64,000 nucleotides of DNA from Nemertoderma westbladi (lineage: Eukaryota > Animalia > Xenacoelomorpha). The notes beneath the pieces were generated by a model, which worked only from the letters and a program-made list of their open reading frames with translations, was not told the DNA's origin and made no database searches. Positions 17,970 to 57,628 of this stretch are shown here, piece by piece; position 1 is the first letter of the stretch; the number at the start of each line of letters is the position of its first letter. Both the position numbers and the translations under genes were made by a program. The stretch covers positions 9,724-73,723 of the forward strand of contig JAUCBJ010007849.1 in the NCBI GenBank assembly GCA_032718475.1. The letters run 5' to 3'.

Positions 17970-18178
17970 ATCATATAGTTAGAATTATGTGTATTATTTA
18001 AATTTCCCGCCGCTTTTTTCCGATGAACATCACAAACATAACGATGATACTGTAGTCTTTTATCTTACTAATTATAACTATTACAGCTTCATACGATATT
18101 CTGGAATTACCGTCCCAAATCTACTGAAGAGTAATTATTACGATCACTAGGCCCAGGTTTGTCATCCTTTATTTCCAG

Positions 18179-18417
18179 GAATAAACGTCTGGCCTCCAGC
18201 CATCGCTATAGGTATATTCTCCGCAACTTTCTCCGCATCCCTCTCCTGTCTCATCGGTGCTTCCCGTATATTATTCGCGTTGGCTGAGGACCTGGTCTTT
18301 GGCGTGATACTGCGGCCGATTTCTACCGGTGTCTCAGATTCCGGTAACCCATATGCGGCTGTTCTCTTTTCCTGGGCTGTAATTCAGTTAATTCTGTTTA
18401 TTGGGGAGCTGAATGAG
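18179..18417 (+). CDS. SLC12A9: SLC12A9 coding exon 2 (absent from the ORF track)
   Basis: Acceptor tttatttccag|; phase-compatible translation (G)INVWPPAIAIGIFSATFSASLSCLIGASRILFALAEDLVFG...GNPYAAVLFSWAVIQLILFIGELNE; donor GAG|GTATAA, phase 0. Confidence 0.92.
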
Positions 18418-19359
18418 GTATAAATAATTATATTAATTTGTAGTTAATTTGTAGTACACCATTTTCGGACAACTCTTCGTTTTATCACTCTCAGCGTTTC
18501 AAAATTGTTTGATTTTGGCTATAATTTGGAATATAGGTGCCTAAGATGCTATTCTACATGACAGGTCAGAACATTTTTATTTTTCGCTATTTAATATTAG
18601 TTAATACTAGTTAACAACAAAAAAAACTTGGTTGCGCTTAAAACCCTAAGGCTTTTACAGTTTTGAATCTATTCACATGAAAGTTTTTTTATATGAAAGA
18701 TCAAAGATGGGGCAACATATCTATCAGGCGAAATTTTGTTAAAATAATTCTGCATCGCTAGGTGGCGCTGCAAATTTATGCCTAATTATTAGGTTTTTTA
18801 TAAATAGTATTAAATTTTATTAACAAATAATTTCGAAAACTTGTCTGATACTTCTATGCAGGGTGGCTATCTAGACACCCACAGAAAGTTTCAGACTAAT
18901 TGCTCAAAAATTATAGAAGTAGTAGGGTTTTGAAGTTGACAATTTCATTAAAAAAATATTTGGAGATAATCGACCTTTCATTATACATAGTAATAGTAAT
19001 TTCAATAGGATTCCCTAAATGGAAATTTTTCTATTTCAAATTTGAAATCAGCGAAATGTTGATCCGTGTGGTTTAGGAGACGAGCGAATTTACAAAGTGA
19101 TTGCAAGTAGAATTGGTACGAGGATCAAAACGGAGGAGATTATTCTGCAATAAATCATTCATAGAATAGAATGTAACAGTAAGAAACGAATGCTTATTAA
19201 AAAAAAACTGCTTGAGAAATTTTGTTTTTTTGTTAAATAATATTTTAAGTTGAAATTTCTCGAATTTTATTTCCACCTGATTTTAAAAGTTATTTACTTT
19301 ATCCCCCCCCCCCCCTCCCTCCCTCCCTCCCTCCCCCCATCCCCCCCCCCCCCTCCCTC

Positions 19360-19670
19360 TGGCTACCGCGCTACCTTTATTACATTACCTCATACAGCTC
19401 TTTACTGATGATCATTGTAATGATGTCTGCCAATCTGTAATTGTGTAATAATAACGGTCCCCCCAGAACTTTACTCCCCAAAGGAAACTGCAGTACTCAT
19501 TTAGCTACCACTTACGGATGCATTGTAGAAAAGCGCCCTGGATAGCTCCTTTAGATAAAGCTCATGCCGAAACGAAAACTACCCTGTCCCAATGCGGGGA
19601 TGGAACCTACAACGGATAGATGTGCATTCAAGATTTAACGGTTTAAACCACTAAATCCAAGTTGAGACCG
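19360..19670 (-). mobile_element. Possible decayed tRNA-derived SINE
   Basis: Minus strand has A-box-like TGGATTTAGTGG and B-box-like GGTTCCATCCC about 30 nt apart; boundaries uncertain. Confidence 0.35.
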
Positions 19671-19813
19671 TATATATAATGTCAGAGTCTCAGAAGTATT
19701 CATCTGTTCTCTTGATCATGTTATCATTTTGTAAAGTAATTAATTCATTCCTAATTTATTAATTGAACAAAAACGAATTAACCCTTTAATTATTATATTA
19801 AACACAAACAGTA

Positions 19814-22800
19814 AATTTTCTCTATACAATTACTTTCACTTTCCACAGCTCATATAGTATCAATATTCTCTATACAATTACTTTCACTTTCCACAGGTTG
19901 CTCCTATAGGCTCAATATTCTCTAAACAATTACTTTCACTTTCCACAGGTTGCTCCTATAGTCTCAATATTATCTATACAATTACTTTCACTTTCCACAG
20001 GTTGCTCCTATAGTCTCAATATTCTCTATACAATTACTTTCACTTTCCACGAGTTGCTCCTATAGACTCAATATTCTCTATACAATTACTTTCACTTTCC
20101 ACAGGTTGCTCCTATAGTCTCAATATTATCTATACAATTACTTTCACTTTCCACAGGTTGCTCCTATAGTCTCAATATTCTCTATACAATTACTTTCACT
20201 TTCCACAGGTTGCTCCTATAGTCTCAATATTATCTATACAATTACTTTCACTTTCCACGAGTTGCTCCTATAGACTCAATATTCTCTATACAATTACTTT
20301 CACTTTCCACAGGTTGCTCCTATAGTCTCAATATTATCTATACAATTACTTTCACTTTCCACGAGTTGCTCCTATAGACTCAATATTCTCTATACAATTA
20401 CTTTCACTTTCCACAGGTTGCTCCTATAGTCTCAATATTATCTATACAATTACTTTCACTTTCCACAGGTTGCTCCTATAGTCTCAATATTATCTATACA
20501 ATTACTTTCACTTTCCACAGGTTGCTCCTATAGTCTCAATATTATCTATACAATTACTTTCACTTTCCACAGGTTGCTCCTATAGTCTCAATATTCTCTA
20601 TACAATTACTTTCACTTTCCACGAGTTGCTCCTATAGACTCAATATTCTCTGTACAATTACTTTCACTTTCCACAGGTTGCTCCTATAGTCTCAATATTA
20701 TCTATACAATTACTTTCACTTTCCACAGGTTGCTCCTATAGTCTCAATATTCTCTATACAATTACTTTCACTTTCCACAGGTTGCTCCTATAGGCTCAAT
20801 ATTCTCTAAACAATTACTTTCACTTTCCACAGGTTGCTCCTATAGTCTCAATATTATCTATACAATTACTTTCACTTTCCACAGGTTGCTCCTATAGTCT
20901 CAATATTCTCTATACAATTACTTTCACTTTCCACAGGTTGCTCCTATAGTCTCAATATTATCTATACAATTACTTTCACTTTCCACAGGTTGCTCCTATA
21001 GGCTCAATATTCTCTATACAATTACTTTCACTTTCCACAGGTTGCTCCTATAGTCTCAATATTCTCTATACAATTACTTTCACTTTCCACGAGGTTGCTC
21101 CTATAGACTCAATATTCTCTATACAATTACTTTCACTTTCCACAGGTTGCTCCTATAGTCTCAATATTATCTATACAATTACTTTCACTTTCCACAGGTT
21201 GCTCCTATAGTCTCAATATTCTCTATACAATTACTTTCACTTTCCACAGGTTGCTCCTATAGTCTCAATATTCTCTATACAATTACTTTCACTTTCCACA
21301 GGTTGCTCCTATAGACTCAATATTCTCTATACAATTACTTTCACTTTCCACAGGTTGCTCTTATAGTCTCAATATTCTCTATACAATTACTTTCACTTTC
21401 CACAGGTTGCTCCTATAGTCTCAATATTCTCTATACAATTACTTTCACTTTCCACAGGTTGCTCCTATAGTCTCAATATTATCTATACAATTACTTTCAC
21501 TTTCCACAGGTTGCTCCTATAGTCTCAATATTCTCTATACAATTACTTTCACTTTCCACAGGTTGCTCCTATAGACTCAATATTCTCTAAACAATTACTT
21601 TCACTTTCCACAGGTTGCTCTTTTAGTCTCAATATTCTCTATACAATTACTTTCACTTTCCACAGGTTGCTCTTATAGTCTCAATATTCTCTATACAATT
21701 ACTTTCACTTTCCACAGGTTGCTCCTATAGTCTCAATATTATCTATACAATTACTTTCACTTTCCACAGGTTGCTCTTATAGTCTCAATATTCTCTATAC
21801 AATTACTTTCACTTTCCACAGGTTGCTCCTATAGTCTCAATATTCTCTATACAATTACTTTCACTTTCCACAGGTTGCTCCTATAGTCTCAATATTATCT
21901 ATACAATTACTTTCACTTTCCACAGGTTGCTCCTATAGTCTCAATATTCTCTATACAATTACTTTCACTTTCCACAGTGCTCCTATAGTCTCAATATTAT
22001 CTATACAATTACTTTCACTTTCCACAGGTTGCTCCTATAGTCTCAATATTATCTATACAATTACTTTCACTTTCCACAGGTTGCTCCTATAGACTCAATA
22101 TTCTCTATACAATTACTTTCACTTTCCACAGGTTGCTCCTATAGTCTCAATATTCTCTATACAATTACTTTCACTTTCCACAGGTTGCTCCTATAGACTC
22201 AATATTCTCTATACAATTACTTTCACTTTCCACAGGTTGCTCCTATAGTCTCAATATTATCTATACAATTACTTTCACTTTCCACAGGTTGCTCCTATAG
22301 TCTCAATATTCTCTATACAATTACTTTCACTTTCCACAGGTTGCTCCTATAGTCTCAATATTATCTATACAATTACTTTCACTTTCCACAGGTTGCTCCT
22401 ATAGTCTCAATATTCTCTATACAATTACTTTCACTTTCCACAGGCTCCTATAGTCTCAATATTATCTATACAATTACTTTCACTTTCCACAGGTTGCTCC
22501 TATAGTCTCAATATTATCTATACAATTACTTTCACTTTCCACAGGTTGCTCTTATAGTCTCAATATTCTCTATACAATTACTTTCACTTTCCACAGGTTG
22601 CTCCTATAGTCTCAATATTCTCTATACAATTACTTTCACTTTCCACAGGTTGCTCCTATAGTCTCAATATTATCTATACAATTACTTTCACTTTCCACAG
22701 GTTGCTCCTATAGTCTCAATATTCTCTATACAATTACTTTCACTTTCCACAGGTTGCTCCTATAGTCTCAATATTCTCTATACAATTACTTTCACTTTCC

Positions 22801-25800
22801 ACAGGTTGCTCCTATAGTCTCAATATTCTCTATACAATTACTTTCACTTTCCACAGGTTGCTCCTATAGTCTCAATATTCTCTATACAATTACTTTCACT
22901 TTCCACAGGTTGCTCTTATAGTCTCAATATTATCTATACAATTACTTTCACTTTCCACAGGTTGCTCCTATAGTCTCAATATTCTCTATACAATTACTTT
23001 CACTTTCCACAGGTTGCTCCTATAGTCTCAATATTATCTATACAATTACTTTCACTTTCCACAGGTTGCTCCTATAGTCTCAATATTCTCTATACAATTA
23101 CTTTCACTTTCCACAGGTTGCTCCTATAGTCTCAATATTATCTATACAATTACTTTCACTTTCCACAGGTTGCTCCTATAGTCTCAATATTATCTATACA
23201 ATTACTTTCACTTTCCACAGGTTGCTCTTATAGTCTCAATATTCTCTATACAATTACTTTCACTTTCCACAGGTTGCTCCTATAGTCTCAATATTCTCTA
23301 TACAATTACTTTCACTTTCCACAGAGGCTCCTATAGTCTCAATATTCTCTATACAATTACTTTCACTTTCCACAGGTTGCTCCTATAGTCTCAATATTCT
23401 CTAAACAATTACTTTCAATTTCCACAGGTTGCTCCTATAGTCTCAATATTATCTATACAATTACTTTCACTTTCCACAGGTTGCTCCTATAGTCTCAATA
23501 TTATCTATACAATTACTTTCACTTTCCACAGGTTGCTCTTATAGTCTCAATATTCTCTATACAATTACTTTCACTTTCCACAGGTTGCTCCTATAGTCTC
23601 AATATTCTCTATACAATTACTTTCACTTTCCACAGGTTGCTCCTATAGTCTCAATATTATCTATACAATTACTTTCACTTTCCACAGGTTGCTCCTATAG
23701 TCTCAATATTCTCTATACAATTACTTTCACTTTCCACAGGTTGCTCCTATAGTCTCAATATTCTCTATACAATTACTTTCACTTTCCACAGGTTGCTCCT
23801 ATAGTCTCAATATTCTCTATACAATTACTTTCACTTTCCACAGGTTGCTCCTATAGTCTCAATATTCTCTAAACAATTACTTTCACTTTCCACAGGTTGC
23901 TTCTATAGTCTCAATATTCTCTATACAATTACTTTCACTTTCCACAGGTTGCTCCTATAGTCTCAATATTCTCTATACAATTACTTTCACTTTCCACAGG
24001 TTGCTCCTATAGTCTCAATATTCTCTAAACAATTACTTTCAATTTCCACAGGTTGCTCCTATAGTCTCAATATTCTCTATACAATTACTTTCACTTTCCA
24101 CAGGTTGCTCCTATAGTCTCAATATTCTCTATACAATTACTTTCACTTTCCACAGGTTGCTCCTATAGTCTCAATATTTTCTAAACAATTACTTTCAATT
24201 TCCACAGGTTGCTCCTATAGTCTCAATATTCTCTATACAATTACTTTCACTTTCCACAGGTTGCTCCTATAGTCTCAATATTCTCTAATACAATTACTTT
24301 CACTTTCCACAGGTTGCTCCTATAGTCTCAATATTCTCTATACAATTACTTTCACTTTCCACAGGTTGCTCCTATAGTCTCAATATTCTCTAAACAATTA
24401 CTTTCAATTTCCACAGGTTGCTCCTATAGTCTCAATATTCTCTATACAATTACTTTCACTTTCCACAGGTTGCTCCTATAGTCTCAATATTATCTATACA
24501 ATTACTTTCACTTTCCACAGGTTGCTCCTATAGTCTCAATATTCTCTAGAAAATTACTTTCACTTTCCACAGGTTGCTCCTATAGTCTCAATATTCTCTA
24601 TACAATTACTTTCACTTTCCACAGGTTGCTCCTATAGTCTCAATATTCTCTATACAATTACTTTCACTTTCCACAGGTTGCTCCTATAGTCTCAATATTA
24701 TCTATACAATTACTTTCACTTTCCACAGGTTGCTCCTATAGTCTCAATATTCTCTATACAATTACTTTCACTTTCCACAGGTTGCTCCTATAGTCTCAAT
24801 ATTCTCTATACAATTACTTTCACTTTCCACAGGTTGCTCCTATAGGCTCAATATTCTCTATACAATTACTTTCACTTTCCACGAGTTGCTCCTATAGTCT
24901 CAATATTCTCTATACAATTACTTTCACTTTCCACAGGTTGCTCCTATGGTCTCAATATTCTCTATACAATTACTTTCACTTTCCACAGGTTGCTTCTATA
25001 GTCTCAATATTCTCTATACAATTACTTTCACTTTCCACGAGTTGCTCCTATAGTCTCAATATTCTCTATACAATTACTTTCACTTTCCACAGGTTGCTCC
25101 TATAGTCTCAATATTCTCTATACAATTACTTTCACTTTCCACAGGTTGCTCCTATAACCTCAATATTCTCTATACAATTACTTTCACTTTCCACAGGTTG
25201 CTCCTATAGTCTCAATATTCTCTATACAATTACTTTCACTTTCCACAAGTGGCTCCTATAGTCTCAATATTATCTATACAATTACTTTCACTTTCCACAA
25301 GTGGCTCCTATAGTCTCAATATTCTCTATACAATTACTTTCACTTTCCACAAGTGGCTCCTATAGTCTCAATATTCTCTATACAATTACTTTCACTTTCC
25401 ACAAGTGGCTCCTATAGTCTCAATATTCTCTATACAATTACTTTCACTTTCCACAAGTGGCTCCTATAGTCTCAATATTATCTATACAATTACTTTCACT
25501 TTCCACGAGTTGCTCCTATAGACTCAATATTATCTATACAATTACTTTCACTTTCCACAGGTTGCTCCTATAGTCTCAATATTCTCTATACAATTACTTT
25601 CACTTTCCACAGGTTGCTTCTATAGTCTCAATATTCTCTATACAATTACTTTCACTTTCCACGAGATGCTCCTATAGTCTCAATATTCTCTATACAATTA
25701 CTTTCACTTTCCACAGGTTGCTCCTATAGTCTCAATATTCTCTATACAATTACTTTCACTTTCCACAGGTTGCTTCTATAGTCTCAATATTCTCTATACA

Positions 25801-28800
25801 ATTACTTTCACTTTCCACGAGTTGCTCCTATAGTCTCAATATTCTCTATACAATTACTTTCACTTTCCACAGGTTGCTCCTATAGTCTCAATATTCTCTA
25901 TACAATTACTTTCACTTTCCACAGGTTGCTCCTATAGTCTCAATATTATCTATACAATTACTTTCACTTTCCACAAGTGGCTCCTATAGTCTCAATATTC
26001 TCTATACAATTACTTTCACTTTCCACGAGTTGCTCCTATAGTCTCAATATTCTCTATACAATTACTTTCACTTTCCACAGGTTGCTCCTATAGTCTCAAT
26101 ATTCTCTATACAATTACTTTCACTTTCCACAGGTTGCTCCTATAGTCTCAATATTCTCTATACAATTACTTTCACTTTCCACAGGTTGCTCCTATAGTCT
26201 CAATATTCTCTATACAATTACTTTCACTTTCCACAGGTTGCTCCTATAGTCTCAATATTCTCTATACAATTACTTTCACTTTCCACAGGTTGCTCCTATA
26301 GTCTCAATATTCTCTATACAATTACTTTCACTTTCCACAGGTTGCTCCTATAGTCTCAATATTCTCTATACAATTACTTTCACTTTCCACAGGTTGCTCC
26401 TATAGTCTCAATATTCTCTATACAATTACTTTCACTTTCCACAGGTTGCTCCTATAGTCTCAATATTCTCTATACAATTACTTTCACTTTCCACAGGTTG
26501 CTCCTATAGTCTCAATATTCTCTATACAATTACTTTCACTTTCCACAGGTTGCTCCTATAGTCTCAATATTCTCTATACAATTACTTTCACTTTCCACAG
26601 GTTGCTCCTATAGTCTCAATATTCTCTATACAATTACTTTCACTTTCCACAGGTTGCTCCTATAGTCTCAATATTCTCTATACAATTACTTTCACTTTCC
26701 ACAGGTTGCTCCTATAGTCTCAATATTCTCTATACAATTACTTTCACTTTCCACAGGTTGCTCCTATAGTCTCAATATTCTCTATACAATTACTTTCACT
26801 TTCCACAGGTTGCTCCTATAGTCTCAATATTCTCTATACAATTACTTTCACTTTCCACAGGTTGCTCCTATAGTCTCAATATTATCTATACAATTACTTT
26901 CACTTTCCACGAGTTGCTCCTATAGTCTCAATATTCTCTATACAATTACTTTCACTTTCCACAGGTTGCTTTTATAGTCTCAATATTCTCTATACAATTA
27001 CTTTCACTTTCCACAGCTCCTATAGTCTCAATATTCTCTATACAATTACTTTCACTTTCCACAGGTTGCTCCTATAGTCTCAATATTCTCTAAACAATTA
27101 CTTTCAATTTCCACAGGTTGCTCCTATAGTCTCAATATTCTCTATACAATTACTTTCACTTTCCACAGGTTGCTCCTATAGTCTCAATATTATCTATACA
27201 ATTACTTTCACTTTCCACAGGTTGCTCCTATAGTCTCAATATTCTCTATAAAATTACTTTCACTTTCCACAGGTTGCTCCTATAGTCTCAATATTCTCTA
27301 TACAATTACTTTCACTTTCCACAGGTTGCTCCTATAGTCTCAATATTCTCTATACAATTACTTTCACTTTCCACAGGTTGCTCCTATAGTCTCAATATTA
27401 TCTATACAATTACTTTCACTTTCCACAGGTTGCTCCTATAGTCTCAATATTCTCTATACAATTACTTTCACTTTCCACAGGTTGCTCCTATAGTCTCAAT
27501 ATTCTCTATACAATTACTTTCACTTTCCACAGGTTGCTCCTATAGGCTCAATATTCTCTATACAATTACTTTCACTTTCCACGAGTTGCTCCTATAGTCT
27601 CAATATTCTCTATACAATTACTTTCACTTTCCACAGGTTGCTCCTATAGTCTCAATATTCTCTATACAATTACTTTCACTTTCCACAGGTTGCTTCTATA
27701 GTCTCAATATTCTCTATACAATTACTTTCACTTTCCACGAGTTGCTCCTATAGTCTCAATATTCTCTATACAATTACTTTCACTTTCCACAGGTTGCTCC
27801 TATAGTCTCAATATTCTCTATACAATTACTTTCACTTTCCACAGGTTGCTCCTATAACCTCAATATTCTCTATACAATTACTTTCACTTTCCACAGGTTG
27901 CTCCTATAGTCTCAATATTCTCTATACAATTACTTTCACTTTCCACAAGTGGTTCCTATAGTCTCAATATTATCTATACAATTACTTTCACTTTCCACAA
28001 GTGGCTCCTATAGTCTCAATATTCTCTATACAATTACTTTCACTTTCCACAAGTGGCTCCTATAGTCTCAATATTCTCTATACAATTACTTTCACTTTCC
28101 ACAAGTGGCTCCTATAGTCTCAATATTCTCTATACAATTACTTTCACTTTCCACAAGTGGCTCCTATAGTCTCAATATTATCTATACAATTACTTTCACT
28201 TTCCACGAGTTGCTCCTATAGACTCAATATTATCTATACAATTACTTTCACTTTCCACAGGTTGCTCCTATAGTCTCAATATTCTCTATACAATTACTTT
28301 CACTTTCCACAGGTTGCTTCTATAGTCTCAATATTCTCTATACAATTACTTTCACTTTCCACGAGATGCTCCTATAGTCTCAATATTCTCTATACAATTA
28401 CTTTCACTTTCCACAGGTTGCTCCTATAGTCTCAATATTCTCTATACAATTACTTTCACTTTCCACAGGTTGCTTCTATAGTCTCAATATTCTCTATACA
28501 ATTACTTTCACTTTCCACGAGTTGCTCCTATAGTCTCAATATTCTCTATACAATTACTTTCACTTTCCACAGGTTGCTCCTATAGTCTCAATATTCTCTA
28601 TACAATTACTTTCACTTTCCACAGGTTGCTCCTATAGTCTCAATATTATCTATACAATTACTTTCACTTTCCACAAGTGGCTCCTATAGTCTCAATATTC
28701 TCTATACAATTACTTTCACTTTCCACGAGTTGCTCCTATAGTCTCAATATTCTCTATACAATTACTTTCACTTTCCACAGGTTGCTCCTATAGTCTCAAT

Positions 28801-31800
28801 ATTCTCTATACAATTACTTTCACTTTCCACAGGTTGCTCCTATAGTCTCAATATTCTCTATACAATTACTTTCACTTTCCACAGGTTGCTCCTATAGTCT
28901 CAATATTCTCTATACAATTACTTTCACTTTCCACAGGTTGCTCCTATAGTCTCAATATTCTCTATACAATTACTTTCACTTTCCACAGGTTGCTCCTATA
29001 GTCTCAATATTCTCTATACAATTACTTTCACTTTCCACAGGTTGCTCCTATAGTCTCAATATTCTCTATACAATTACTTTCACTTTCCACAGGTTGCTCC
29101 TATAGTCTCAATATTCTCTATACAATTACTTTCACTTTCCACAGGTTGCTCCTATAGTCTCAATATTCTCTATACAATTACTTTCACTTTCCACAGGTTG
29201 CTCCTATAGTCTCAATATTCTCTATACAATTACTTTCACTTTCCACAGGTTGCTCCTATAGTCTCAATATTCTCTATACAATTACTTTCACTTTCCACAG
29301 GTTGCTCCTATAGTCTCAATATTCTCTATACAATTACTTTCACTTTCCACAGGTTGCTCCTATAGTCTCAATATTCTCTATACAATTACTTTCACTTTCC
29401 ACAGGTTGCTCCTATAGTCTCAATATTCTCTATACAATTACTTTCACTTTCCACAGGTTGCTCCTATAGTCTCAATATTCTCTATACAATTACTTTCACT
29501 TTCCACAGGTTGCTCCTATAGTCTCAATATTCTCTAAACAATTACTTTCACTTTCCACAGGTTGCTCCTATAGTCTCAATATTCTCTATACAATTACTTT
29601 CACTTTCCACGAGTTGCTCCTATAGTCTCAATATTCTCTATACAATTACTTTCACTTTCCACAGGTTGCTTCTATAGTCTCAATATTCTCTATACAATTA
29701 CTTTCACTTTCCACAGTGCTCCTATAGTCTCAATATTCTCTATACAATTACTTTCACTTTCCACAGGTTGCTTCTATAGTCTCAATATTCTCTATACAAT
29801 TACTTTCACTTTCCACAGGTTGCTCCTATATACTCAATATTCTCTATACAATTACTTTCACTTTCCACAGGTTGCTTCTATAGTCTCAATATTCTCTATA
29901 CAATTACTTTCACTTTCCACAGGTTGCTCCTATATACTCAATATTCTCTATACAATTACTTTCACTTTCCACAGGTTGCTCCTATAGTCTCAATATTCTC
30001 TATACAATTACTTTCACTTTCCACAGGTTGCTTCTATAGTCTCAATATTCTCTATACAATTACTTTCACTTTCCACAGGTTGCTCCTATAGTACTCAATA
30101 TTCTCTATACAATTACTTTCACTTTCCACAGGTTGCTCCTATAGTCTCAATATTCTCTAATACAATTACTTTCACTTTCCACAGGTTGCTCCTATAGTCT
30201 CAATATTCTCTATACAATTACTTTCACTTTCCACAGGTTGCTCCTATAGTCTCAATATTCTCTAAACAATTACTTTCAATTTCCACAGGTTGCTCCTATA
30301 GTCTCAATATTCTCTATACAATTACTTTCACTTTCCACAGGTTGCTCCTATAGTCTCAATATTCTCTAAACAATTACTTTCAATTTCCACAAGTGGCTCC
30401 TATAGTCTCAATATTCTCTATACAATTACTTTCACTTTCCACAGGTTGCTCCTATAGTCTCAATATTCTCTATACAATTACTTTCACTTTCCACAGGTTG
30501 CTCCTATAGTCTCAATATTCTCTATACAATTACTTTCAATTTCCACAGGTTGCTCCTATAGTCTCAATATTCTCTATACAATTACTTTCACTTTCCACAG
30601 GTTGCTCCTATAGTCTCAATATTCTCTAATACAATTACTTTCACTTTCCACAGGTTGCTCCTATAGTCTCAATATTCTCTATACAATTACTTTCACTTTC
30701 CACAGGTTGCTCCTATAGTCTCAATATTCTCTAAACAATTACTTTCAATTTCCACAGGTTGCTCCTATAGTCTCAATATTCTCTATACAATTACTTTCAC
30801 TTTCCACAGGTTGCTCCTATAGTCTCAATATTCTCTATACAATTACTTTCACTTTCCACAGGTTGCTCCTATAGTCTCAATATTCTCTAATACAATTACT
30901 TTGACTTTCCACGAGTTGCTCCTATAGTCTCAATATTCTCTATACAATTACTTTCACTTTCCACAGGTTGCTCCTATAGTCTCAATATTCTCTATACAAT
31001 TACTTTCACTTTCCACAGGTTGCTTCTATAGTCTCAATATTCTCTATACAATTACTTTCACTTTCCACGAGTTGCTCCTATAGTCTCAATATTCTCTATA
31101 CAATTACTTTCACTTTCCACAGGTTGCTCCTATAGTCTCAATATTCTCTATACAATTACTTTCACTTTCCACAGGTTGCTCCTATAGTCTCAATATTCTC
31201 TATACAATTACTTTCACTTTCCACAGGTTGCTTCTATAGTCTCAATATTCTCTATACAATTACTTTCACTTTCCACAGGTTGCTCCTATAGTACTCAATA
31301 TTCTCTATACAATTACTTTCACTTTCCACAGGTTGCTCTTATAGTCTCAATATTCTCTATACAATTACTTTCACTTTCCACAGGTTGCTCCTATAGTCTC
31401 AATATTCTCTATACAATTACTTTCACTTTCCACAGGTTGCTCCTATAGACTCAATATTCTCTAAACAATTACTTTCAATTTCCACAGGTTGCTCTTATAG
31501 TCTCAATATTCTCTATACAATTACTTTCACTTTCCACAGGTTGCTCCTATAGTCTCAATATTATCTATACAATTACTTTCACTTTCCACAGGTTGCTCCT
31601 ATAGACTCAATATTCTCTAAACAATTACTTTCAATTTCCACAGGTTGCTCTTATAGTCTCAATATTCTCTATACAATTACTTTCACTTTCCACAGGTTGC
31701 TCCTATAGTCTCAATATTCTCTATACAATTACTTTCACTTTCCACAGGTTGCTCCTATAGTCTCAATATTCTCTATACAATTACTTTCACTTTCCACAGG

Positions 31801-43800: not shown

Positions 43801-46800
43801 TCTATACAATTACTTTCACTTTCCACAGGTTGCTCCTATAACCTCAATATTATCTATACAATTACTTTCACTTTCCACGAATTGCTCCTATAGACTCAAT
43901 ATTCTCTATACAATTACTTTCACTTTCCACGAATTGCTCCAATAGACTCAATATTCTCTATACAATTACTTTCACTTTCCACAGGTTGCTCCTATAGACT
44001 CAATATTCTCTAAACAATTACTTTCAATTTCCACAGGTTGCTCCTATAGACTCAATATTCTCTATACAATTACTTTCACTTTCCACGAATTGCTCCTATA
44101 GACTCAATATTCTCTATACAATTACTTTCACTTTCCACAGGTTGCTCCTATAGACTCAATATTCTCTAAACAATTACTTTCAATTTCCACAGGTTGCTCC
44201 TATAGACTCAATATTCTCTATACAATTACTTTCACTTTCCACGAATTGCTCCTATAGACTCAATATTCTCTATACAATTACTTTCACTTTCCACAGGTTG
44301 CTCCTATAGACTCAATATTCTCTAAACAATTACTTTCAATTTCCACAGGTTGCTCCTATAGACTCAATATTCTCTATACAATTACTTTCACTTTCCACGA
44401 ATTGCTCCTATAGACTCAATATTCTCTATACAATTACTTTCACTTTCCACAGGTTGCTCCTATAGTCTCAATATTCTCTATACAATTACTTTCACTTTCC
44501 ACAGGTTGCTCCTATAACCTCAATATTATCTATACAATTACTTTCACTTTCCACAGGTTGCTCCTATAACCTCAATATTATCTATACAATTACTTTCACT
44601 TTCCACGAATTGCTCCTATAGACTCAATATTCTCTATACAATTACTTTCACTTTCCACAGGTTGCTCCTATAGTCTCAATATTCTCTATAAAATTACTTT
44701 CACTTTCCACAGGTTGCTTTTATAGTCTCAATATTCTCTATACAATTACTTTCACTTTCCACAAGTGGCTCCTATAGTCTCAATATTCTCTATACAATTA
44801 CTTTCACTTTCCACAGGTTGCTCCTATAACCTCAATATTATCTATACAATTACTTTCACTTTCCACGAATTGCTCCTATAGACTCAATATTCTCTATACA
44901 ATTACTTTCACTTTCCACAGGTTGCTCCTATAGTCTCAATATTCTCTATAAAATTACTTTCACTTTCCACAGGTTGCTCCTATAGTCTCAATATTCTCTA
45001 TAAAATTACTTTCACTTTTCACAGGTTGCTTTTATAGTCTCAATATTCTCTATACAATTACTTTCACTTTCCACAGGTTGCTCCTATAACCTCAATATTA
45101 TCTATACAATTACTTTCACTTTCCACAGGTTGCTCCTATAACCTCAATATTATCTATACAATTACTTTCACTTTCCACGAATTGCTCCTATAGACTCAAT
45201 ATTCTCTATACAATTACTTTCACTTTCCACAGGTTGCTCCTATAGTCTCAATATTCTCTATAAAATTACTTTCACTTTCCACAGGTTGCTTTTATAGTCT
45301 CAATATTCTCTATACAATTACTTTCACTTTCCACAAGTGGCTCCTATAGTCTCAATATTCTCTATATAATTACTTTCACTTTCCACAAGTGGCTCCTATA
45401 GTCTCAATATTCTCTATACAATTACTTTCACTTTCCACAAGTGGCTCCTATAGTCTCAATATTCTCTATACAATTACTTTCACTTTCCACAAGTGGCTCC
45501 TATAGTCTCAATATTCTCTATACAATTACTTTCACTTTCCACAAGTGGCTCCTATAGTCTCAATATTCTCTATACAATTACTTTCACTTTCCACAAGTGG
45601 CTCCTATAGACTCAATATTCTCTAAACAATTACTTTCACTTTCCACAGGTTGCTCTTATAGTCTCAATATTCTCTATACAATTACTTTCACTTTCCACAA
45701 GTGGCTCCTATAGTCTCAATATTATCTATACAATTACTTTCACTTTCCACAAGTGGCTCCTATAGTCTCAATATTCTCTATACAATTACTTTCACTTTCC
45801 ACAAGTGGCTCCTATAGTCTCAATATTCTCTATACAATTACTTTCACTTTCCACAGGTTGCTCCTATAGTCTCAATATTCTCTATACAATTACTTTCACT
45901 TTCCACAGGTTGCTCCTATAACCTCAATATTATCTATACAATTACTTTCACTTTCCACAGGTTGCTCCTATAACCTCAATATTATCTATACAATTACTTT
46001 CACTTTCCACGAATTGCTCCTATAGACTCAATATTCTCTATACAATTACTTTCACTTTCCACAGGTTGCTCTTATAGTCTCAATATTCTCTAAACAATTA
46101 CTTTCACTTTCCACAGGTTGCTCTTATAGTCTCAATATTCTCTATACAATTACTTTCACTTTCCACAGGTTGCTCCTATAGACTCAATATTCTCTAAACA
46201 ATTACTTTCACTTTCCACAGGTTGCTCCTATAGTCTTAATATTCTCTAATACAATTACTTTGACTTTCCACGAGTTGCTCCTATAGACTCAATATTCTCT
46301 ATACAATTACTTTCACTTTCCACGAATTGCTCCTATAGACTCAATATTCTCTATACAATTACTTTCACTTTCCACAAGTGGCTCCTATAGTCTCAATATT
46401 CTCTATACAATTACTTTCACTTTCCACAGGTTGCTCCTATAGACTCAATATTCTCTAAACAATTACTTTCACTTTCCACAGGTTGCTCCTATAGTCTTAA
46501 TATTCTCTAATACAATTACTTTCACTTTCCACGAATTGCTCCTATAGACTCAATATTCTCTATACAATTACTTTCACTTTCCACAAGTGGCTCCTATAGT
46601 CTCAATATTCTCTATACAATTACTTTCACTTTCCACAGGTTGCTCCTATAGTCTCAATATTCTCTATACAATTACTTTCACTTTCCACAGGTTGCTCTTA
46701 TAGTCTCAATATTCTCTATACAATTACTTTCACTTTCCACAGGTTGCTCCTATAGACTCAATATTCTCTAAACAATTACTTTCAATTTCCACAGGTTGCT

Positions 46801-46870
46801 CCTATAGTCTTAATATTCTCTAATACAATTACTTTCACTTTCCACGAATTGCTCCTATAGACTCAATATT
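19814..46870 (+). repeat. 52-bp splice-junction satellite, left block (about 520 units)
   Basis: Consensus tctatacaattactttcactttccacag|gttgctcctatagtctcaatattc, period 52, near-identical copies with recurrent variants. Confidence 0.98.
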
Positions 46871-47353
46871 TTCGCAGTCCTCTGTGATACTGCCGAGGAA
46901 CCAACAGTTGGTGGTAAAGTACCTCCAAGTGGGACGGTAGATCTTGTAGCACCCATCAAAGGGATCTCACCTGCACCCGTTGTACTCAAACCGAAAAAAC
47001 ATAAGAAATCTATAAACGAAATATCGGATGAGTTATCCTTAACTCAACACACAATAAAAGAAAACGCTAATGGGGCGGCTAAGCGACGAGGCCGTAGTGC
47101 AACTAGAGGTAGTCGATCTGGTAGTGTGGGTGACATTGGCAAACAACGGGCCAACTCCCGCAGTATGATAAGTCGCTCAGCTCGGAGCAAGGAGGCTACC
47201 CAGCAGGGACCCAGTCAGGGCGAGAAACAGGATCCGAACCCAACGTGTCCTAACCAAGACATGGTTGGTACCAGTCGTGGTGACCTTGCGGGTGGCGTTA
47301 GCGAGGGTCAATCTGCAAACCCTACGAGCTCCGACACCTTCGAAATAGGGTGA
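46871..47353 (+). pseudogene. Truncated LINE ORF1 C-terminus
   Basis: Frame is open from the insertion junction (FAVLCDTAEEP...KPKKHKK...KRRGRS) to TGA at 47351-47353, with no initiator at the junction. Confidence 0.7.
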
Positions 47354-47400
47354 CCAGTACGACCAGTGGCGGTAACCTGAACTCGAGACCAATTAATTAT

Positions 47401-50400
47401 ATGCCTATAAGTTCACTAAAAGTTGGGTCTTTGAATGTTGAAGGTATAGTTAACAAATTACCAGACTTGGAGTTCCAGGAAGTATTAAATAATTATGATA
47501 TTTTTGTATGTACAGAAACCTGGCTGAGCCCTGAAAATTCACTCATTGCGGATATTGCAGGTTTTAATTATTTTGCCGTAACAAGGTTGAATAAAAATCC
47601 CAAAGCTAGACGTTTTAGTGGAGGGATAAACGTGTATTACAAAAAACAGCTTGAAGGACATATAACTGTTCTAGAACGTAATGAGGATATAATTTTTCTA
47701 AATATCTGTGGAACTATTGTAAATTCACCGATTGATATATTATTTTGTGCAATTTATATACCCCCAGAAGGATCAACTTCCCATTGTGGTGACCCTGCAT
47801 CTTTATATGACTTACTTGAAAATGGAATTGCTAAATTTGGTTCGAGCAGGGAAACTATTATAGCAGGCGATTTCAATGCCAGAACTGCAGAACTGAATGA
47901 TTTCATTTGTGATGAATATTCTGACAGGCCCAATGACTTAAATGAGTTATTGCCCCCAGATTATGTTTTCGATGATGACAATGGTGACTGGGAAGGTTCT
48001 GTAAATAAAATTAGGAGAAATCAGGATGAAGTAAAAAATAACCATGGTAAACTACTTCTAAATTTGTGTAAAAATGCCAGGGTCAGAATATTGAATGGAA
48101 GGGCTGGGCGCGATGATGGCGTAGGAAAGTTTACATTTTTTGCACCTGGTGAAAGGAGAACTAGGGCTTCGACCATAGACTATATCCTAGCTGGATGCGG
48201 TCTATTATCTCACTGCTCAAATTTTTATGTTGGGGACCCAAATTTGTTTAGTCCTCACGTTATTGTCACTGCCGAATTTTATTGGCCAGTAGAAATTGAA
48301 ACGCAAGTGGATACTAATATCGATAAAACAACGAAATGCGGGGAACAAAATAGTAGGTTTAAATGGAAGGAAAAATTCAGTGATAAGTTTAAAAAAGAGC
48401 TATCTTCAGAAGTGGTACAAACTAAATTAGACAATATCGCCGACAAACTATGCACAGGACTTAACACTCCGGCGGATATTGATAATGCAACAGAGGAGAT
48501 AGTTGACTGCATTAGACAAGTGGCAGGACGATACTTCAAAGTAAGGGAAGGCGGATCACCGGGTGATAAATGTAATGTTTCTTACCCGTGGTACAATGAT
48601 GAGTGTGCGGATAAGCGTTTTATTTTTCGTAGAGAATTTAATGCATGGAAAAATAGTCCCACTCACAGTACCTTCAACAGACTAGCTACATCTCGTTCAC
48701 AGTACTGTAAGTGCATTCGTCAAGCAAAGGCAAGATATGATCGAGAACAGTCACAAACATTAGAACGCACTAGGGTGGTGAATAGCCAACAGTTTTGGGC
48801 AATGTTAAAAAACTCAACAGGAACAGGTTCTAGAACTCGCGAGGGGGGGCCTACATTAGACTCATTCTCAAAGTATTACGAGACCCTACTGTCAAATAAT
48901 AACAATTTTGTAGATGTAGGCATCTCACCACCAGAAACGGTTAACGTAGATGAGTGCCAAGGCATGTTCGAAAACGATATTTCGGTTGCTTTAACTGAAT
49001 GTGAGTTGGAAAATGCTATTGATAGATTGAAGAAACGTAAATCCCCTGGAATAGATAACATTTTGAACGAGTTCCTGATTGAAGGTAAAGATTTCCTCAT
49101 TCCAATTTTAACAGTACTTTTCAATGCCATTTTGGCATCTGGCAAATTCCCCACAGAATGGGCGATTGCGATAATTTCTCCTATATATAAGAAGAAAGGT
49201 ACATTTTCTGACCCAGATAACTATAGGGGTATATCTCTTATTAGTTGCATAGCCAAACTATTCACCAGCATAGTAAATTCAAGATTGTCATTTTGGGCAG
49301 ACTGTATGGAAGTTCTATCGGAAGCACAGGCGGGTTTCAGATATGGATACAGTACGATCGATCATATCTTCTTGTTAAATGGACTAGTTGAACATTTCAC
49401 TCGTAATCAAGTTGGTAAGCTATACGCGGCCTTTATTGACTTCTCAAAGGCGTTTGATAGCGTTAACAGGGACGCACTGTGGATAAAACTAGCTAGTATT
49501 GGGTTCAGTGGTAAGCTGTTTGATGTGATCAAGAGCATGTATAGTTGCGTCAAATCGTGTGTGCGCTCTAATGGAGAAGTCTCTGATTGTTTTCCGTGTT
49601 TGTCAGGTGTGAGACAGGGTGATTGTTTGTCTCCCTTTTTATTTGCGATGTTCATGAACGATCTGGAGGCAGAGCTTGCGAAGGATGGTTTTGAAGGGAT
49701 TACTATAGGATATTTACATTTATTTCTCATCCTTTATGCCGACGATATTGTATTACTTGCAAGCAGTCCATCAGACTTACAACATTGTCTCGACACGTTA
49801 GGTGACTATTGCGACTACTGGGGTTTAAGGGTTAATCTCGCCAAATCAAATGTTATGGTGTTTCGCAAAGGTGGGCAACTTGCAAGATTAGAAAGGTGGT
49901 CATACAAGGGTGTTGCTATGGAAACGGTTTCACATTATTTGTATCTGGGAGTTACCTTTTCTTGTATGGGGTCCTTCACCGAGGCTCAACGTGTACTTGC
50001 AGAGAAGGCGAATAAGGCATTGTTTTCGTTGAACAAATATCTATTCACATTCCCATGTATCACATTTGATCTTCGCTACAAACTATTTAACTCTCTAATA
50101 CTTCCGATCCTGCACTACGGGTGCCCAGTATGGGGGGACATCGCAGGTCCAGACGTGGAAAAGGTACATCTAAAATTTCTCAAGAGAGGTCTGGGCGTGA
50201 AAACGACAACCCCAAACTTTATGGTGTATGGAGAGACAGGGACGGTACCGCTACGTCTCCATCGACAATTTGCTATGTTAAAATTTTGGGTGAGGATTCT
50301 GAAGCTCCCTGAGAAACGCCTGACAAAACAGATATATTACACACTGCTTAAGGACATGCATACGCAAACATCGAGTAAAAGGGGTGCGACAAACTGGGTA

Positions 50401-50943
50401 GTACAAATACGTAACTTAATCAACAATATTGGATTGAGCTCTTTTTGGACGGAACAAAATGTACACAATGAAAAAACCTTCCTTGCCAGCGCCAAGAGGA
50501 GGCTTCATGATCAGTTCATCCAGGGATGGTGGGCTGATTGCGAAGCGTCTTCTAAGGGAGCCCTATATATAAAATATAACTTTCGAGTTGAGGGTTACTT
50601 AAACATTTTGACTGACCACCCCAAACTGAAAGTAGCCTTGGCACGCCTACGTTGTTCTTCACATAATTTACGTGTGGAAGAAGGCAGATGGCGGAAAGAA
50701 AACCCATTGGAAAGATTATGTGTTTTTTGCACACTAAATGCAATAGAGGACGAAATGCATTTCATCCTGATCTGCCCAGCTTATGCGGAACTACGATTGC
50801 AATTAATACCCGAAACTTTTTGGCGAGACCCAACGAAACAAAATTACCGCCAATTGTTGTCAACGAACTCCAAATCAGCCCTTGTAAATCTGAGCCTGTT
50901 CATTTATAAGGCGATGAAAATCAGAAATGAAACTAACAAATAA
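47401..50943 (+). CDS. LINE ORF2: AP endonuclease, reverse transcriptase and C-terminal Cys/His motif
   Basis: SLNVEG, TETW, AGDFNAR, IDYI; KSPGID, NYRGISL, QAGFR, FIDFSKAFDSV, GVRQGDCLSP, LYADD, YLGV; CVFC...EDEMHFILIC. First ATG is at 47401. Confidence 0.95.
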   Translation: MPISSLKVGSLNVEGIVNKLPDLEFQEVLNNYDIFVCTETWLSPENSLIADIAGFNYFAVTRLNKNPKARRFSGGINVYYKKQLEGHITVLERNEDIIFLNICGTIVNSPIDILFCAIYIPPEGSTSHCGDPASLYDLLENGIAKFGSSRETIIAGDFNARTAELNDFICDEYSDRPNDLNELLPPDYVFDDDNGDWEGSVNKIRRNQDEVKNNHGKLLLNLCKNARVRILNGRAGRDDGVGKFTFFAPGERRTRASTIDYILAGCGLLSHCSNFYVGDPNLFSPHVIVTAEFYWPVEIETQVDTNIDKTTKCGEQNSRFKWKEKFSDKFKKELSSEVVQTKLDNIADKLCTGLNTPADIDNATEEIVDCIRQVAGRYFKVREGGSPGDKCNVSYPWYNDECADKRFIFRREFNAWKNSPTHSTFNRLATSRSQYCKCIRQAKARYDREQSQTLERTRVVNSQQFWAMLKNSTGTGSRTREGGPTLDSFSKYYETLLSNNNNFVDVGISPPETVNVDECQGMFENDISVALTECELENAIDRLKKRKSPGIDNILNEFLIEGKDFLIPILTVLFNAILASGKFPTEWAIAIISPIYKKKGTFSDPDNYRGISLISCIAKLFTSIVNSRLSFWADCMEVLSEAQAGFRYGYSTIDHIFLLNGLVEHFTRNQVGKLYAAFIDFSKAFDSVNRDALWIKLASIGFSGKLFDVIKSMYSCVKSCVRSNGEVSDCFPCLSGVRQGDCLSPFLFAMFMNDLEAELAKDGFEGITIGYLHLFLILYADDIVLLASSPSDLQHCLDTLGDYCDYWGLRVNLAKSNVMVFRKGGQLARLERWSYKGVAMETVSHYLYLGVTFSCMGSFTEAQRVLAEKANKALFSLNKYLFTFPCITFDLRYKLFNSLILPILHYGCPVWGDIAGPDVEKVHLKFLKRGLGVKTTTPNFMVYGETGTVPLRLHRQFAMLKFWVRILKLPEKRLTKQIYYTLLKDMHTQTSSKRGATNWVVQIRNLINNIGLSSFWTEQNVHNEKTFLASAKRRLHDQFIQGWWADCEASSKGALYIKYNFRVEGYLNILTDHPKLKVALARLRCSSHNLRVEEGRWRKENPLERLCVFCTLNAIEDEMHFILICPAYAELRLQLIPETFWRDPTKQNYRQLLSTNSKSALVNLSLFIYKAMKIRNETNK

Positions 50944-51311
50944 TTATTTATATTTTCTAACAATATTAATATTTCATCTATTAACTTAAATTGTTGTGTG
51001 TTTCATTTTCATTGTTGATTTATGCATTGGGGTCACGGCGCTAAGTAGAAATATAATATATCTATTATACTTTGAAGTATACGAACACGACTATTAATGA
51101 TAAAATAGAATATTGTTTCCTTATACGGTGTAACTCAGATTATAGATAGGATAATTTCGCTATTCTGTCCTACCTTCTAAGAAATTGTTATTTATAATAG
51201 TTCAGCTGGTGTACTGATTGATCAATTTATATTACATGGTGTCTACCGGTAAAGTGCAACAATTACATTAATTTGTATGTTGAAATAATAAATAAATAAT
51301 AAAAAAAAAAA

Positions 51312-54300
51312 AATATTATCTATACAATTACTTTCACTTTCCACAGGTTGCTCCTATAACCTCAATATTATCTATACAATTACTTTCACTTTCCACGAAT
51401 TGCTCCTATAGACTCAATATTCTCTATACAATTACTTTCACTTTCCACGAATTGCTCCTATAGACTCAATATTCTCTATACAATTACTTTCACTTTCCAC
51501 AGGTTGCTCCTATAGACTCAATATTCTCTAAACAATTACTTTCAATTTCCACAGGTTGCTCCTATAGACTCAATATTCTCTATACAATTACTTTCACTTT
51601 CCACGAATTGCTCCTATAGACTCAATATTCTCTATACAATTACTTTCACTTTCCACAGGTTGCTCCTATAGACTCAATATTCTCTAAACAATTACTTTCA
51701 ATTTCCACAGGTTGCTCCTATAGACTCAATATTCTCTATACAATTACTTTCACTTTCCACGAATTGCTCCTATAGACTCAATATTCTCTATACAATTACT
51801 TTCACTTTCCACAGGTTGCTCCTATAGACTCAATATTCTCTAAACAATTACTTTCAATTTCCACAGGTTGCTCCTATAGACTCAATATTCTCTATACAAT
51901 TACTTTCACTTTCCACGAATTGCTCCTATAGACTCAATATTCTCTATACAATTACTTTCACTTTCCACAGGTTGCTCCTATAGTCTCAATATTCTCTATA
52001 CAATTACTTTCACTTTCCACAGGTTGCTTTTATAGTCTCAATATTCTCTATACAATTACTTTCACTTTCCACAGGTTGCTCCTATAACCTCAATATTATC
52101 TATACAATTACTTTCACTTTCCACGAATTGCTCCTATAGACTCAATATTATCTATACAATTACTTTCACTTTCCACGAATTGCTCCTATAGACTCAATAT
52201 TCTCTATACAATTACTTTCACTTTCCACAGGTTGCTCCTATAGTCTCAATATTCTCTATAAAATTACTTTCACTTTCCACAGGTTGCTCCTATAGTCTCA
52301 ATATTCTCTATAAAATTACTTTCACTTTTCACAGGTTGCTTTTATAGTCTCAATATTCTCTATACAATTACTTTCACTTTCCACAGGTTGCTCCTATAAC
52401 CTCAATATTATCTATACAATTACTTTCACTTTCCACAGGTTGCTCCTATAACCTCAATATTATCTATACAATTACTTTCACTTTCCACGAATTGCTCCTA
52501 TAGACTCAATATTCTCTATACAATTACTTTCACTTTCCACAGGTTGCTCCTATAGACTCAATATTCTCTAAACAATTACTTTCAATTTCCACAGGTTGCT
52601 CCTATAGACTCAATATTCTCTATACAATTACTTTCACTTTCCACGAATTGCTCCTATAGACTCAATATTCTCTATACAATTACTTTCACTTTCCACAGGT
52701 TGCTCCTATAGACTCAATATTCTCTAAACAGTTACTTTCAATTTCCACAGGTTGCTCCTATAGACTCAATATTCTCTATACAATTACTTTCACTTTCCAC
52801 GAATTGCTCCTATAGACTCAATATTCTCTATACAATTACTTTCACTTTCCACGAATTGCTCCTATAGACTCAATATTCTCTATACAATTACTTTCACTTT
52901 CCACAGGTTGCTCCTATAGACTCAATATTCTCTAAACAATTACTTTCAATTTCCACAGGTTGCTCCTATAGACTCAATATTCTCTATACAATTACTTTCA
53001 CTTTCCACGAATTGCTCCTATAGACTCAATATTCTCTATACAATTACTTTCACTTTCCACAGGTTGCTCCTATAGTCTCAATATTCTCTATAAAATTACT
53101 TTCACTTTCCACAGGTTGCTTTTATAGTCTCAATATTCTCTATACAATTACTTTCACTTTCCACAAGTGGCTCCTATAGTCTCAATATTCTCTATACAAT
53201 TACTTTCACTTTCCACAGGTTGCTCCTATAACCTCAATATTATCTATACAATTACTTTCACTTTCCACGAATTGCTCCTATAGACTCAATATTCTCTATA
53301 CAATTACTTTCACTTTCCACAGGTTGCTCCTATAGTCTCAATATTCTCTATAAAATTACTTTCACTTTCCACAGGTTGCTCCTATAGTCTCAATATTCTC
53401 TATAAAATTACTTTCACTTTTCACAGGTTGCTTTTATAGTCTCAATATTCTCTATACAATTACTTTCACTTTCCACAGGTTGCTCCTATAACCTCAATAT
53501 TATCTATACAATTACTTTCACTTTCCACAGGTTGCTCCTATAACCTCAATATTATCTATACAATTACTTTCACTTTCCACGAATTGCTCCTATAGACTCA
53601 ATATTCTCTATACAATTACTTTCACTTTCCACAGGTTGCTCCTATAGTCTCAATATTCTCTATAAAATTACTTTCACTTTTCACAGGTTGCTTTTATAGT
53701 CTCAATATTCTCTATACAATTACTTTCACTTTCCACAGGTTGCTCCTATAGTCTCAATATTATCTATACAATTACTGGTACTTTCACTTTCCACAGGTTG
53801 CTCCTATAACCTCAATATTATCTATACAATTACTTTCACTTTCCACAGGTTGCTCCTATAACCTCAATATTATCTATACAATTACTTTCACTTTCCACGA
53901 ATTGCTCCTATAGACTCAATATTCTCTATACAATTACTTTCACTTTCCACAGGTTGCTCCTATAGTCTCAATATTCTCTATAAAATTACTTTCACTTTCC
54001 ACAGGTTGCTTTTATAGTCTCAATATTCTCTATACAATTACTTTCACTTTCCACAAGTGGCTCCTATAGTCTCAATATTCTCTATACAATTACTTTCACT
54101 TTCCACAAGTGGCTCCTATAGTCTCAATATTCTCTATACAATTACTCTCACTTTCCACAAGTGGCTCCTATAGTCTCAATATTCTCTATACAATTACTTT
54201 CACTTTCCACAAGTGGCTCCTATAGTCTCAATATTCTCTATACAATTACTTTCACTTTCCACAAGTGGCTCCTATAGTCTCAATATTCTCTATACAATTA

Positions 54301-55797
54301 CTTTCACTTTCCACAAGTGGCTCCTATAGACTCAATATTCTCTAAACAATTACTTTCACTTTCCACAGGTTGCTCTTATAGTCTCAATATTCTCTATACA
54401 ATTACTTTCACTTTCCACAAGTGGCTCCTATAGTCTCAATATTATCTATACAATTACTTTCACTTTCCACAAGTGGCTCCTATAGTCTCAATATTCTCTA
54501 TACAATTACTTTCACTTTCCACAAGTGGCTCCTATAGTCTCAATATTCTCTATACAATTACTTTCACTTTCCACAAGTGGCTCCTATAGTCTCAATATTC
54601 TCTATACAATTACTTTCACTTTCCACAAGTGGCTCCTATAGTCTCAATATTCTCTATACAATTACTTTCACTTTCCACAAGTGGCTCCTATAGACTCAAT
54701 ATTATCTAAACAATTACTTTCACTTTCCACAGGTTGCTCTTATAGTCTCAATATTCTCTATACAATTACTTTCACTTTCCACAGGTTGCTCTTATAGTCT
54801 CAATATTCTCTATACAATTACTTTCACTTTCCACAGGTTGCTCCTATAGTCTCAATATTATCTATACAATTACTTTCACTTTCCACAAGTGGCTCCTATA
54901 GTCTCAATATTCTCTATACAATTACTTTCACTTTCCACAAGTGGCTCCTATAGTCTCAATATTCTCTATACAATTACTTTCACTTTCCACAAGTGGCTCC
55001 TATAGTCTCAATATTCTCTATACAATTACTTTCACTTTCCACAGGTTGCTCCTATAGTCTCAATATTATCTATACAATTACTTTCACTTTCCACAAGTGG
55101 CTCCTATAGTCTCAATATTCTCTATACAATTACTTTCACTTTCCACAAGTGGCTCCTATAGTCTCAATATTCGCTATACAATTACTTTAACTTTCCACAA
55201 GTGGCTCCTATAGTCTCAATATTCTCTATACAATTACTTTCACTTTCCACAAGTGGCTCCTATAGTCTCAATATTCTCTATACAATTACTTTCACTTTCC
55301 ACAGGTTGCTCCTATAGTCTCAATATTATCTATACAATTACTTTCACTTTCCACAAGTGGCTCCTATAGTCTCAATATTCTCTATACAATTACTTTCACT
55401 TTCCACAAGTGGCTCCTATAGTCTCAATATTCTCTATACAATTACTTTCACTTTCCACAAGTGGCTCCTATAGTCTCAATATTCTCTATACAATTACTTT
55501 CACTTTCCACAAGTGGCTCCTATAGTCTCAATATTATCTATACAATTACTTTCACTTTCCACGAATTGCTCCTATAGACTCAATATTCTCTATACAATTA
55601 CTTTCACTTTCCACAGGTTGCTCTTATAGTCTCAATATTCTCTATACAATTACTTTCACTTTCCACAAGTGGCTCCTATAGTCTCAATATTCTCTATACA
55701 ATTACTTTCACTTTCCACAAGTGGCTCCTATAGACTCAATATTCTCTATACAATTACTTTCACTTTCCACAGGTTGCTCCTATAGTCTCAATATTCT
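51312..55797 (+). repeat. 52-bp splice-junction satellite, right block (about 86 units), overlapping the first 8 codons of exon 3
   Basis: Same unit; the last copy supplies the functional acceptor AG at 55771-55772. Confidence 0.98.
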
Positions 55798-57622: not shown

Positions 57623-57628
57623 AATAAA
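57623..57628 (+). terminator. Candidate SLC12A9 polyadenylation signal
   Basis: AATAAA about 440 nt after the stop codon; the context is AT-rich, so support is weak. Confidence 0.35.

Follow-up and report, generated by a model that had tools for sequence, protein, structure and literature searches.

Which acceptor does the spliceosome use when an intron has filled up with copies of its own 3' splice site? The question is raised by a gene for a putative SLC12A9-like ion transporter in a 64,000-nucleotide stretch of DNA from Nemertoderma westbladi (contig JAUCBJ010007849.1; the whole stretch is called the window below). A preliminary description of the window had proposed that the giant second intron of this gene consists largely of tandem copies of a 52-bp unit joining the end of the intron to the start of exon 3. 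We find that the array itself is real and that, in one transcript assembly, the gene is live, expressed and spliced to the last copy. The explanation that we consider probable is that the intron–exon boundary of the gene underwent runaway duplication, that the resulting array is likely a neutral by-product, and that the last acceptor is chosen from the exon side.

Intron 2 extends from 18418 to 55772 on the forward strand, to which all parts of the gene and array belong (37,355 nt, GT..AG). It begins with about 1.4 kb of unique sequence, likely the ancestral intron body (18418..19813), followed by a first array block (19814..46870, about 520 copies of the acceptor/exon-start unit, the first of them degraded), a 4.4-kb long interspersed nuclear element (LINE) in sense orientation that splits the array (46871..51311), a second block of about 85 units (51312..55744) and the real unit (55745..55796), made up of 28 intron bases and the first 24 coding bases of exon 3, with the acceptor CAG|GTT at 55772/55773. 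At period 52, Tandem Repeats Finder reports 520.1 copies over 19814-46870 and 86.2 over 51312-55797, with 94–95% matches, and counting by an anchor motif gives 602 units, in line with the proposed figure of about 600. The units run head-to-tail and total 31,543 bp, and their consensus corresponds exactly to the last 28 bases of intron 2 plus the first 24 coding bases of exon 3, as had been described. Once the array and the LINE are subtracted, about 1.4 kb of intron is left, a length similar to that of intron 1 (1,421 nt). The growth from 1.4 to 37.4 kb that had been ascribed to satellite is thus borne out for 31,543 bp, but 4.4 kb of it is the LINE, which had gone unmentioned.

Hundreds of near-identical decoy acceptors are indeed present, although not every upstream unit is one: an intact CAG|GT is kept in 464 of about 601. 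The exact 52-mer occurs 179 times including the real copy, hence 178 times upstream of it. The mean pairwise difference between units is 4.9% (562 units of 52 bp), and 78 unit types are found; blocks of units have been duplicated in a nested fashion, the longest with 29 units in the same order. Homologues of the gene conserve the exon half of the unit, which is therefore old coding sequence, meaning that the satellite was born from the gene; on the same ground, namely that the exon part is conserved SLC12A9 coding sequence, a horizontal origin of the unit from elsewhere was rejected. The 52-bp unit had no match in metagenome contigs, and Rfam gave none in the window.

The three exons (15695-16757, 18179-18417 and 55773-57182) join into a frame of 903 codons with a single, terminal stop, and are thus open and phase-compatible, as had been claimed. 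Coding exon 1 (15695..16757) runs from the ATG to a phase-1 donor, AAG|GTAATC, and contains an AA_permease domain (E=7e-37); intron 1 (16758..18178, 1,421 nt, GT..AG) is a predicted one, its splicing being deduced from frame and homology; exon 2 (18179..18417) ends in a phase-0 donor, GAG|GTATAA; and the terminal exon 3 (55773..57637) is coding up to 57182, contains the SLC12 domain and has an AATAAA at 57623. Both real donors lack a G at +5 (GTAATC at 16758-16763 and GTATAA at 18418-18423), so the organism may tolerate weak donors, a point that bears on the stepwise splicing scheme considered below.

To judge from its sequence, the host gene is an SLC12A9-like ion transporter of an invertebrate animal. 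Its product has the Pfam domains AA_permease and SLC12, and among the 120 matches listed nearly all named homologues are SLC12A9 or SLC12A9-like (44–49% identity, 414–457 bits), while solved KCC, NKCC and NCC chains score at most 138 bits against it. Across the ELNE| junction (residues 420-460), the protein is colinear without insertion or deletion in 118 of the 120 listed homologues, which agrees with the earlier proposal that splicing to the last copy restores a conserved SLC12 segment. Two homologue searches found no sequence with more than 49% identity over the whole exon, and in a FastTree tree (73 of 241 sequences, no SLC12A8 outgroup) the product formed a long branch of unresolved position. 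Gap ends in 240 homologues showed no peak at residue 355 or 435 and are uninformative on intron ancestry.

Direct evidence for the use of the last copy comes from one of four sequencing runs, from three studies, that contain exon 3 (here X1 to X4). No record lists any of the four as RNA, and three carry a flag that marks them as a possible origin of the window; the read contigs of the four were compared over 55721-57900 only. X1 yields a single contig of 1,952 nt (depth 238.8) that has 0 mismatches over 55771-57637 and ends, at 57637, just after the AATAAA. The contig has a loose end of 85 nt, of which the 30 printed letters equal 18386-18415; the loose end is thus the end of exon 2, completed by the shared AG, and the junction is therefore 18417|55773. 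This junction, continuing into unique exon sequence, is the one that had been set beforehand as a check on the proposal. The X1 depth in the first bin of the compared interval (75.2) equals 238.8 x 23/73 and is fully explained by the spliced contig, so that, by depth accounting in this bin, X1 has no contig on the repeat, contigs being a form of evidence from which rare forms drop out. We read X1 as RNA, from its content alone, and 18417|55773 as its dominant form, in one sample. That the spliceosome skips or steps through hundreds of decoys, as had been suggested, is consistent with the splicing in X1 but follows only if the allele of the X1 individual is long as well.

The decoys would yield nothing that resembles the transporter. 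All 464 lead to a stop within 90 codons, and 362 of them give the 38-codon product that had been predicted for splicing to an upstream unit; of 1,122 AGs in the array a single one, which precedes the real site by 39 bases, gives a frame that stays open to the true stop. No protein is therefore expected from the decoys, and their in-frame use as extra coding modules was rejected on the grounds of these stops. Structural hiding of the decoys was rejected as well: the predicted unpaired value of the acceptor region is 0.83 for decoys (40 of 459 sampled) and 0.82 for the real site, an equality by which predicted structure would not single out the latter. A difference appears only beyond the repeated exon bases: downstream of +24 the GC content is 55% at the real copy versus 34% at the decoys. 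The array contains 0 GTAAG or GTGAG donors and no AATAAA or ATTAAA.

These observations suggest how the last copy could be selected. The signals upstream of a decoy would be essentially those of the real site, and what follows it would be 24 exon bases and then AT-rich repeat. With neither a strong donor nor a poly(A) signal behind it, a decoy would fail to qualify as an exon, whether internal or terminal; the last copy alone would have a poly(A) site and the body of a GC-rich exon behind it. Because decoys could not close an exon, the donor of exon 2 would remain waiting while 36 kb were transcribed, and then pair with the last copy. Such behavior has counterparts: the distal of two duplicated acceptors is used in human CBS 844ins68 (PMC2630376, PMC1802585), the amphioxus mirages treated below reportedly leave splicing undisturbed (PMC3087553, PMC3902484), in constructs with duplicated beta-globin 3' sites splicing is exclusively distal, and very inefficient (PMC5389562; this and all other papers cited here by PubMed Central number are cited from excerpts), and an exon-centric proximity rule under exon definition has been described for 5' sites (PMC9225289).

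Several points weigh against selection from the exon side of a neutral array. The classical, intron-centric rule of Reed and Maniatis prefers the upstream acceptor (PMC9225289). The unit is G-poor (8%), so that the G-run mechanism invoked for the duplicated acceptor of human CBS (see below) does not carry over, and no exonic enhancer was identified. The transcript evidence is one assembly from one sample, in which rare forms would have been dropped and from which decay would hide mis-spliced RNA; moreover, the X1 individual may carry fewer copies, although its exon 3 equals that of the window base for base. Finally, the loss of AG among the units rises toward the real site, from 10% to 58% per 50 units (Spearman 0.70, P 0.012, with non-independent bins), and this gradient is a hint that neutrality could be incomplete.

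The three other runs, of DNA, bear on the attachment and length of the array. The exon-3 contigs of X2, X3 and X4 all start at 55768, where an attached repeat would force a 31-letter graph to branch; these runs therefore fit an attached repeat, and a loose end in X3 shows 9 letters of the left junction of the array. The summed repeat depth amounts to 997x single copy in X2 and 1,529x in X3, compared with 5,656x in an unsimplified-graph simulation of the window array. On the most conservative scale, these depths imply about 100 copies in X2 and about 160 in X3 if all lie at the SLC12A9 locus, and more if graph simplification removed contigs. The exon 3 of X2 is identical to that of the window over 1,453 nt. 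X4 shows a single 82-nt consensus cycle at 22–57x, where 291x would be expected; this depth implies dozens of copies and points either to an allele that is much shorter or to bias in the library. Although filed under the sample of X3, X4 has 16 differing positions over 55768-57269 versus 1 in X3, and probably represents another individual or lineage, one whose array is shorter. The figure of 600 copies is accordingly that of the window alone.

X4 is also informative on the state of the gene: 13 of 15 coding substitutions in its exon 3 are synonymous, versus 23% expected (P about 4e-7), a pattern indicative of purifying selection on a gene to which the repeat is attached. The pseudogene reading was rejected in view of the open 903-codon frame, the correctly spliced X1 contig and this selection in X4. 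A dead allele or a pure assembly expansion, the two outcomes that the preliminary description had named as fatal to its proposal, is unlikely.

A milder form of the latter concern is that the array is real but its length in the window reflects an assembly expansion or a rare allele, the RNA coming from a short allele; the locus would then be an ordinary-sized case of the amphioxus 'mirage' minisatellites discussed below. The array is spanned by no read, the repeat depths of X2 and X3 lie 4–6 times below the simulated value, and the lone consensus cycle of X4 lies far below its expectation. However, 78 unit types in nested higher-order blocks, with their 4.9% mean difference, are unlike a collapsed or looped assembly, as is a LINE with a target-site duplication and an empty-site copy; the copy numbers of X2 and X3 (if at the SLC12A9 locus) and the identity of the X2 exon 3 to the window also argue against an overstated length, which we regard as highly unlikely. 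A different possibility arises from the fact that exon 3 starts with GT, which makes every intact unit an AG|GT site. Each joining of exon 2 to a decoy would create a new donor, GAG|GTTGCT, so that the intron could be removed stepwise in a recursive ratchet that corrects itself to the last copy and yields a final mRNA equal to the X1 contig. The array offers 464 CAG|GT sites for such steps, and the regenerated donor has the same number of matches to the U1 9-mer as the real donor GAG|GTATAA (5 of 9, by a crude count that is not an organism-specific model). A duplicated AGGT can form a working intron, spliced at 6–16% (PMC3265369), and a tandem array of dual-specific AGGT sites in UBC is spliced (PMC10809524). 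Yet the regenerated donor has T, G and C at +3 to +5, and hence neither A/G at +3 nor G at +5, whereas both real donors have A at +3; fly recursive sites generally carry strong motifs (PMC6110457); and the mature junction is itself GAG|GTTGCT. Splicing intermediates do not appear in the data, which, being contigs, could not show them. We find recursive removal quite unlikely.

Another possibility is that decoys are used often but that their products, all of which would stop prematurely and trail a very long 3' tail, are destroyed. In that event the array would lower the output of the gene, and AG-dead variants would be selected beside the real site. The early stops at all 464 decoys and the lone array AG open to the true stop fit this idea, as does the distribution of intact acceptors: the last 33 upstream units keep only 7, the fewest in any such stretch (minimum elsewhere 16, median 28), and the most often changed of the 52 positions of the unit is position 22, the G of the AG (128 of 562 units). 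However, seven other common variants are locally enriched by 2.3- to 4.2-fold, a span into which the 3.6-fold value of the AG-dead units falls; a single origin may be common to the AG-dead types, which would then reflect one event rather than many; and X1 contains no mis-spliced contig. Selection on AG-dead variants is therefore not established, their local excess being only a hint, and we give leaky use with clean-up the same low credence as recursive removal. The wider claim that the array is an active splicing device, either a self-correcting AG|GT ratchet or a copy-number-dependent drain on expression, with about tenfold variation in allele length and acceptor-dead variants selected beside the real site, also appears unlikely to us, if somewhat less so; were it true, runaway amplification of an intron's own acceptor would be a distinct route to giant introns in the lineage.

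Under the reading that we prefer, in which the boundary duplicated and then ran away, the array also retains traces of its origin. Its left edge (19814-19820) matches bases 18-24 of exon 3 at 6 of 7 positions, a 7-nt microhomology, and the first 52-bp duplication may have arisen by slippage or unequal exchange between these two sites. Later amplification would have proceeded by ordinary satellite turnover, i.e. block duplications and homogenisation, with the LINE landing in the array afterwards. In the recent element at 46871-51311, an open reading frame (ORF) of 1,179 codons for an endonuclease and reverse transcriptase is accompanied by a poly(A) tail and by a target-site duplication of 6 bp, features that mark it as an APE-type retrotransposon without long terminal repeats (non-LTR). 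An empty-site copy of the block that bears it is found 3 kb upstream (43540-43800, 260 identical bases), and the LINE therefore inserted after the array had grown. It brought five AATAAA into the intron, behind some 400 acceptors, and, for the decoys upstream of it, could possibly form a premature terminal exon.

The remainder of the window contains other mobile and repeated sequences. A BEL/Pao LTR retrotransposon lies on the reverse strand at 1469-9574, with two ORFs (1,322 and 1,378 codons) that share a frame and have one stop between them, and with the domains DUF1759, Pao peptidase, integrase zinc finger and DUF5641; near its end, a 38-bp unit is repeated 6.4 times (11324-11565, 92% matches). 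A dispersed repeat with a G run, of very high depth in all four runs, follows exon 3 (57730-57900), and a second young satellite, with a 26-bp unit (59.5 copies, 97% matches), occupies 62452-63998 and runs off the window end. An intronless cytochrome P450 ORF is found at 59600-61123, which, together with the three-exon structure of the SLC12A9-like gene, suggests an intron-poor genome.

The preliminary description knew of no case built from the splice acceptor itself. This does not hold, for amphioxus 'mirage' minisatellites and the human CBS 844ins68 allele precede it. Mirages, found in Adh3, troponin C, the globins BflGb6 and BflGb9 and PGBD5, span intron–exon boundaries, keep splice signals and vary in length, and splicing is reported to be undisturbed (PMC3087553, PMC3902484). 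The likeness is close: BflGb6 also repeats the 3' end of an intron with the start of the next exon and, as here, splice signals survive in many of the units but not in all. Mirages are further described as unstable in length and concerted in turnover, with normal splicing. The present array has the tandem units, the unit made of the gene's own boundary, the splice signal in many units and, in one run, the normal mRNA; as for allele length, the low depth of X4 beside the far higher depths of X2 and X3 may reflect either a difference between alleles or library bias. It differs in scale, with about 600 units and 31.5 kb versus 6 and 3 units of 150–160 bp in BflGb6, as well as in its higher-order blocks, its internal LINE, its 37-kb intron and its occurrence in a non-amphioxus animal. 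In CBS 844ins68, an intron end and exon start are likewise duplicated, the two acceptors are identical, and splicing to the distal one yields normal mRNA (PMC2630376, PMC1802585), but there are only two copies and the distal choice is ascribed to G runs between the sites (PMC1802585).

Minisatellites that reiterate a splice site are also known on the donor side, where variable numbers of tandem repeats range from 5 to 26 copies overall: 5–9 copies of 37 bp in F7 intron 7, 25 pseudo-sites in IFI6/6-16, 15–20 copies in CBS intron 13, 10–15 in LMNB2 and 16–18 in PDGF (PMC1557585). There too, the copy beside the intact exon is mainly used. However, the real donor is transcribed first in those genes, whereas the real acceptor comes last here, after 464 intact decoys and 36 kb. 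Recursive and AGGT sites share with each intact unit an acceptor followed by GT (PMC6110457, PMC10809524, PMC3265369); the donor half, GTTGCT, is far from consensus here. In a literature search that had the original Adh3 paper, subscription journals and supplements outside its scope, no boundary repeat of hundreds of copies was found.

The array is big enough to count as satellite-driven intron gigantism. In the Drosophila Y genes kl-3 and kl-5, intron satellites are simple and are not known to be related to the splice sites. As here, satellite DNA drives intron size there and the gene is still expressed (PMC6508621, PMC11207136); the introns of kl-3 and kl-5 are satellite-filled and reach up to megabases, while that of the present gene measures 37 kb and its satellite is the acceptor itself.

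The locus thus joins two literatures, that on small mirage minisatellites and that on satellite-driven intron gigantism. It also constitutes a natural experiment on acceptor choice, in which 464 intact copies are transcribed across 36 kb before the true acceptor and the true one is found in the mRNA: any nearest-acceptor or first-come-first-served rule must give way to information located farther than 24 bases into the exon, to re-splicing or to decay. Since units can be told apart by diagnostic variants and allele length seems to vary, these mechanisms are distinguishable in principle. In kind, then, the array is a mirage, and what is new is its scale, with about twenty times more copies than in any case found, in a comparison that had the Adh3 copy number outside it.

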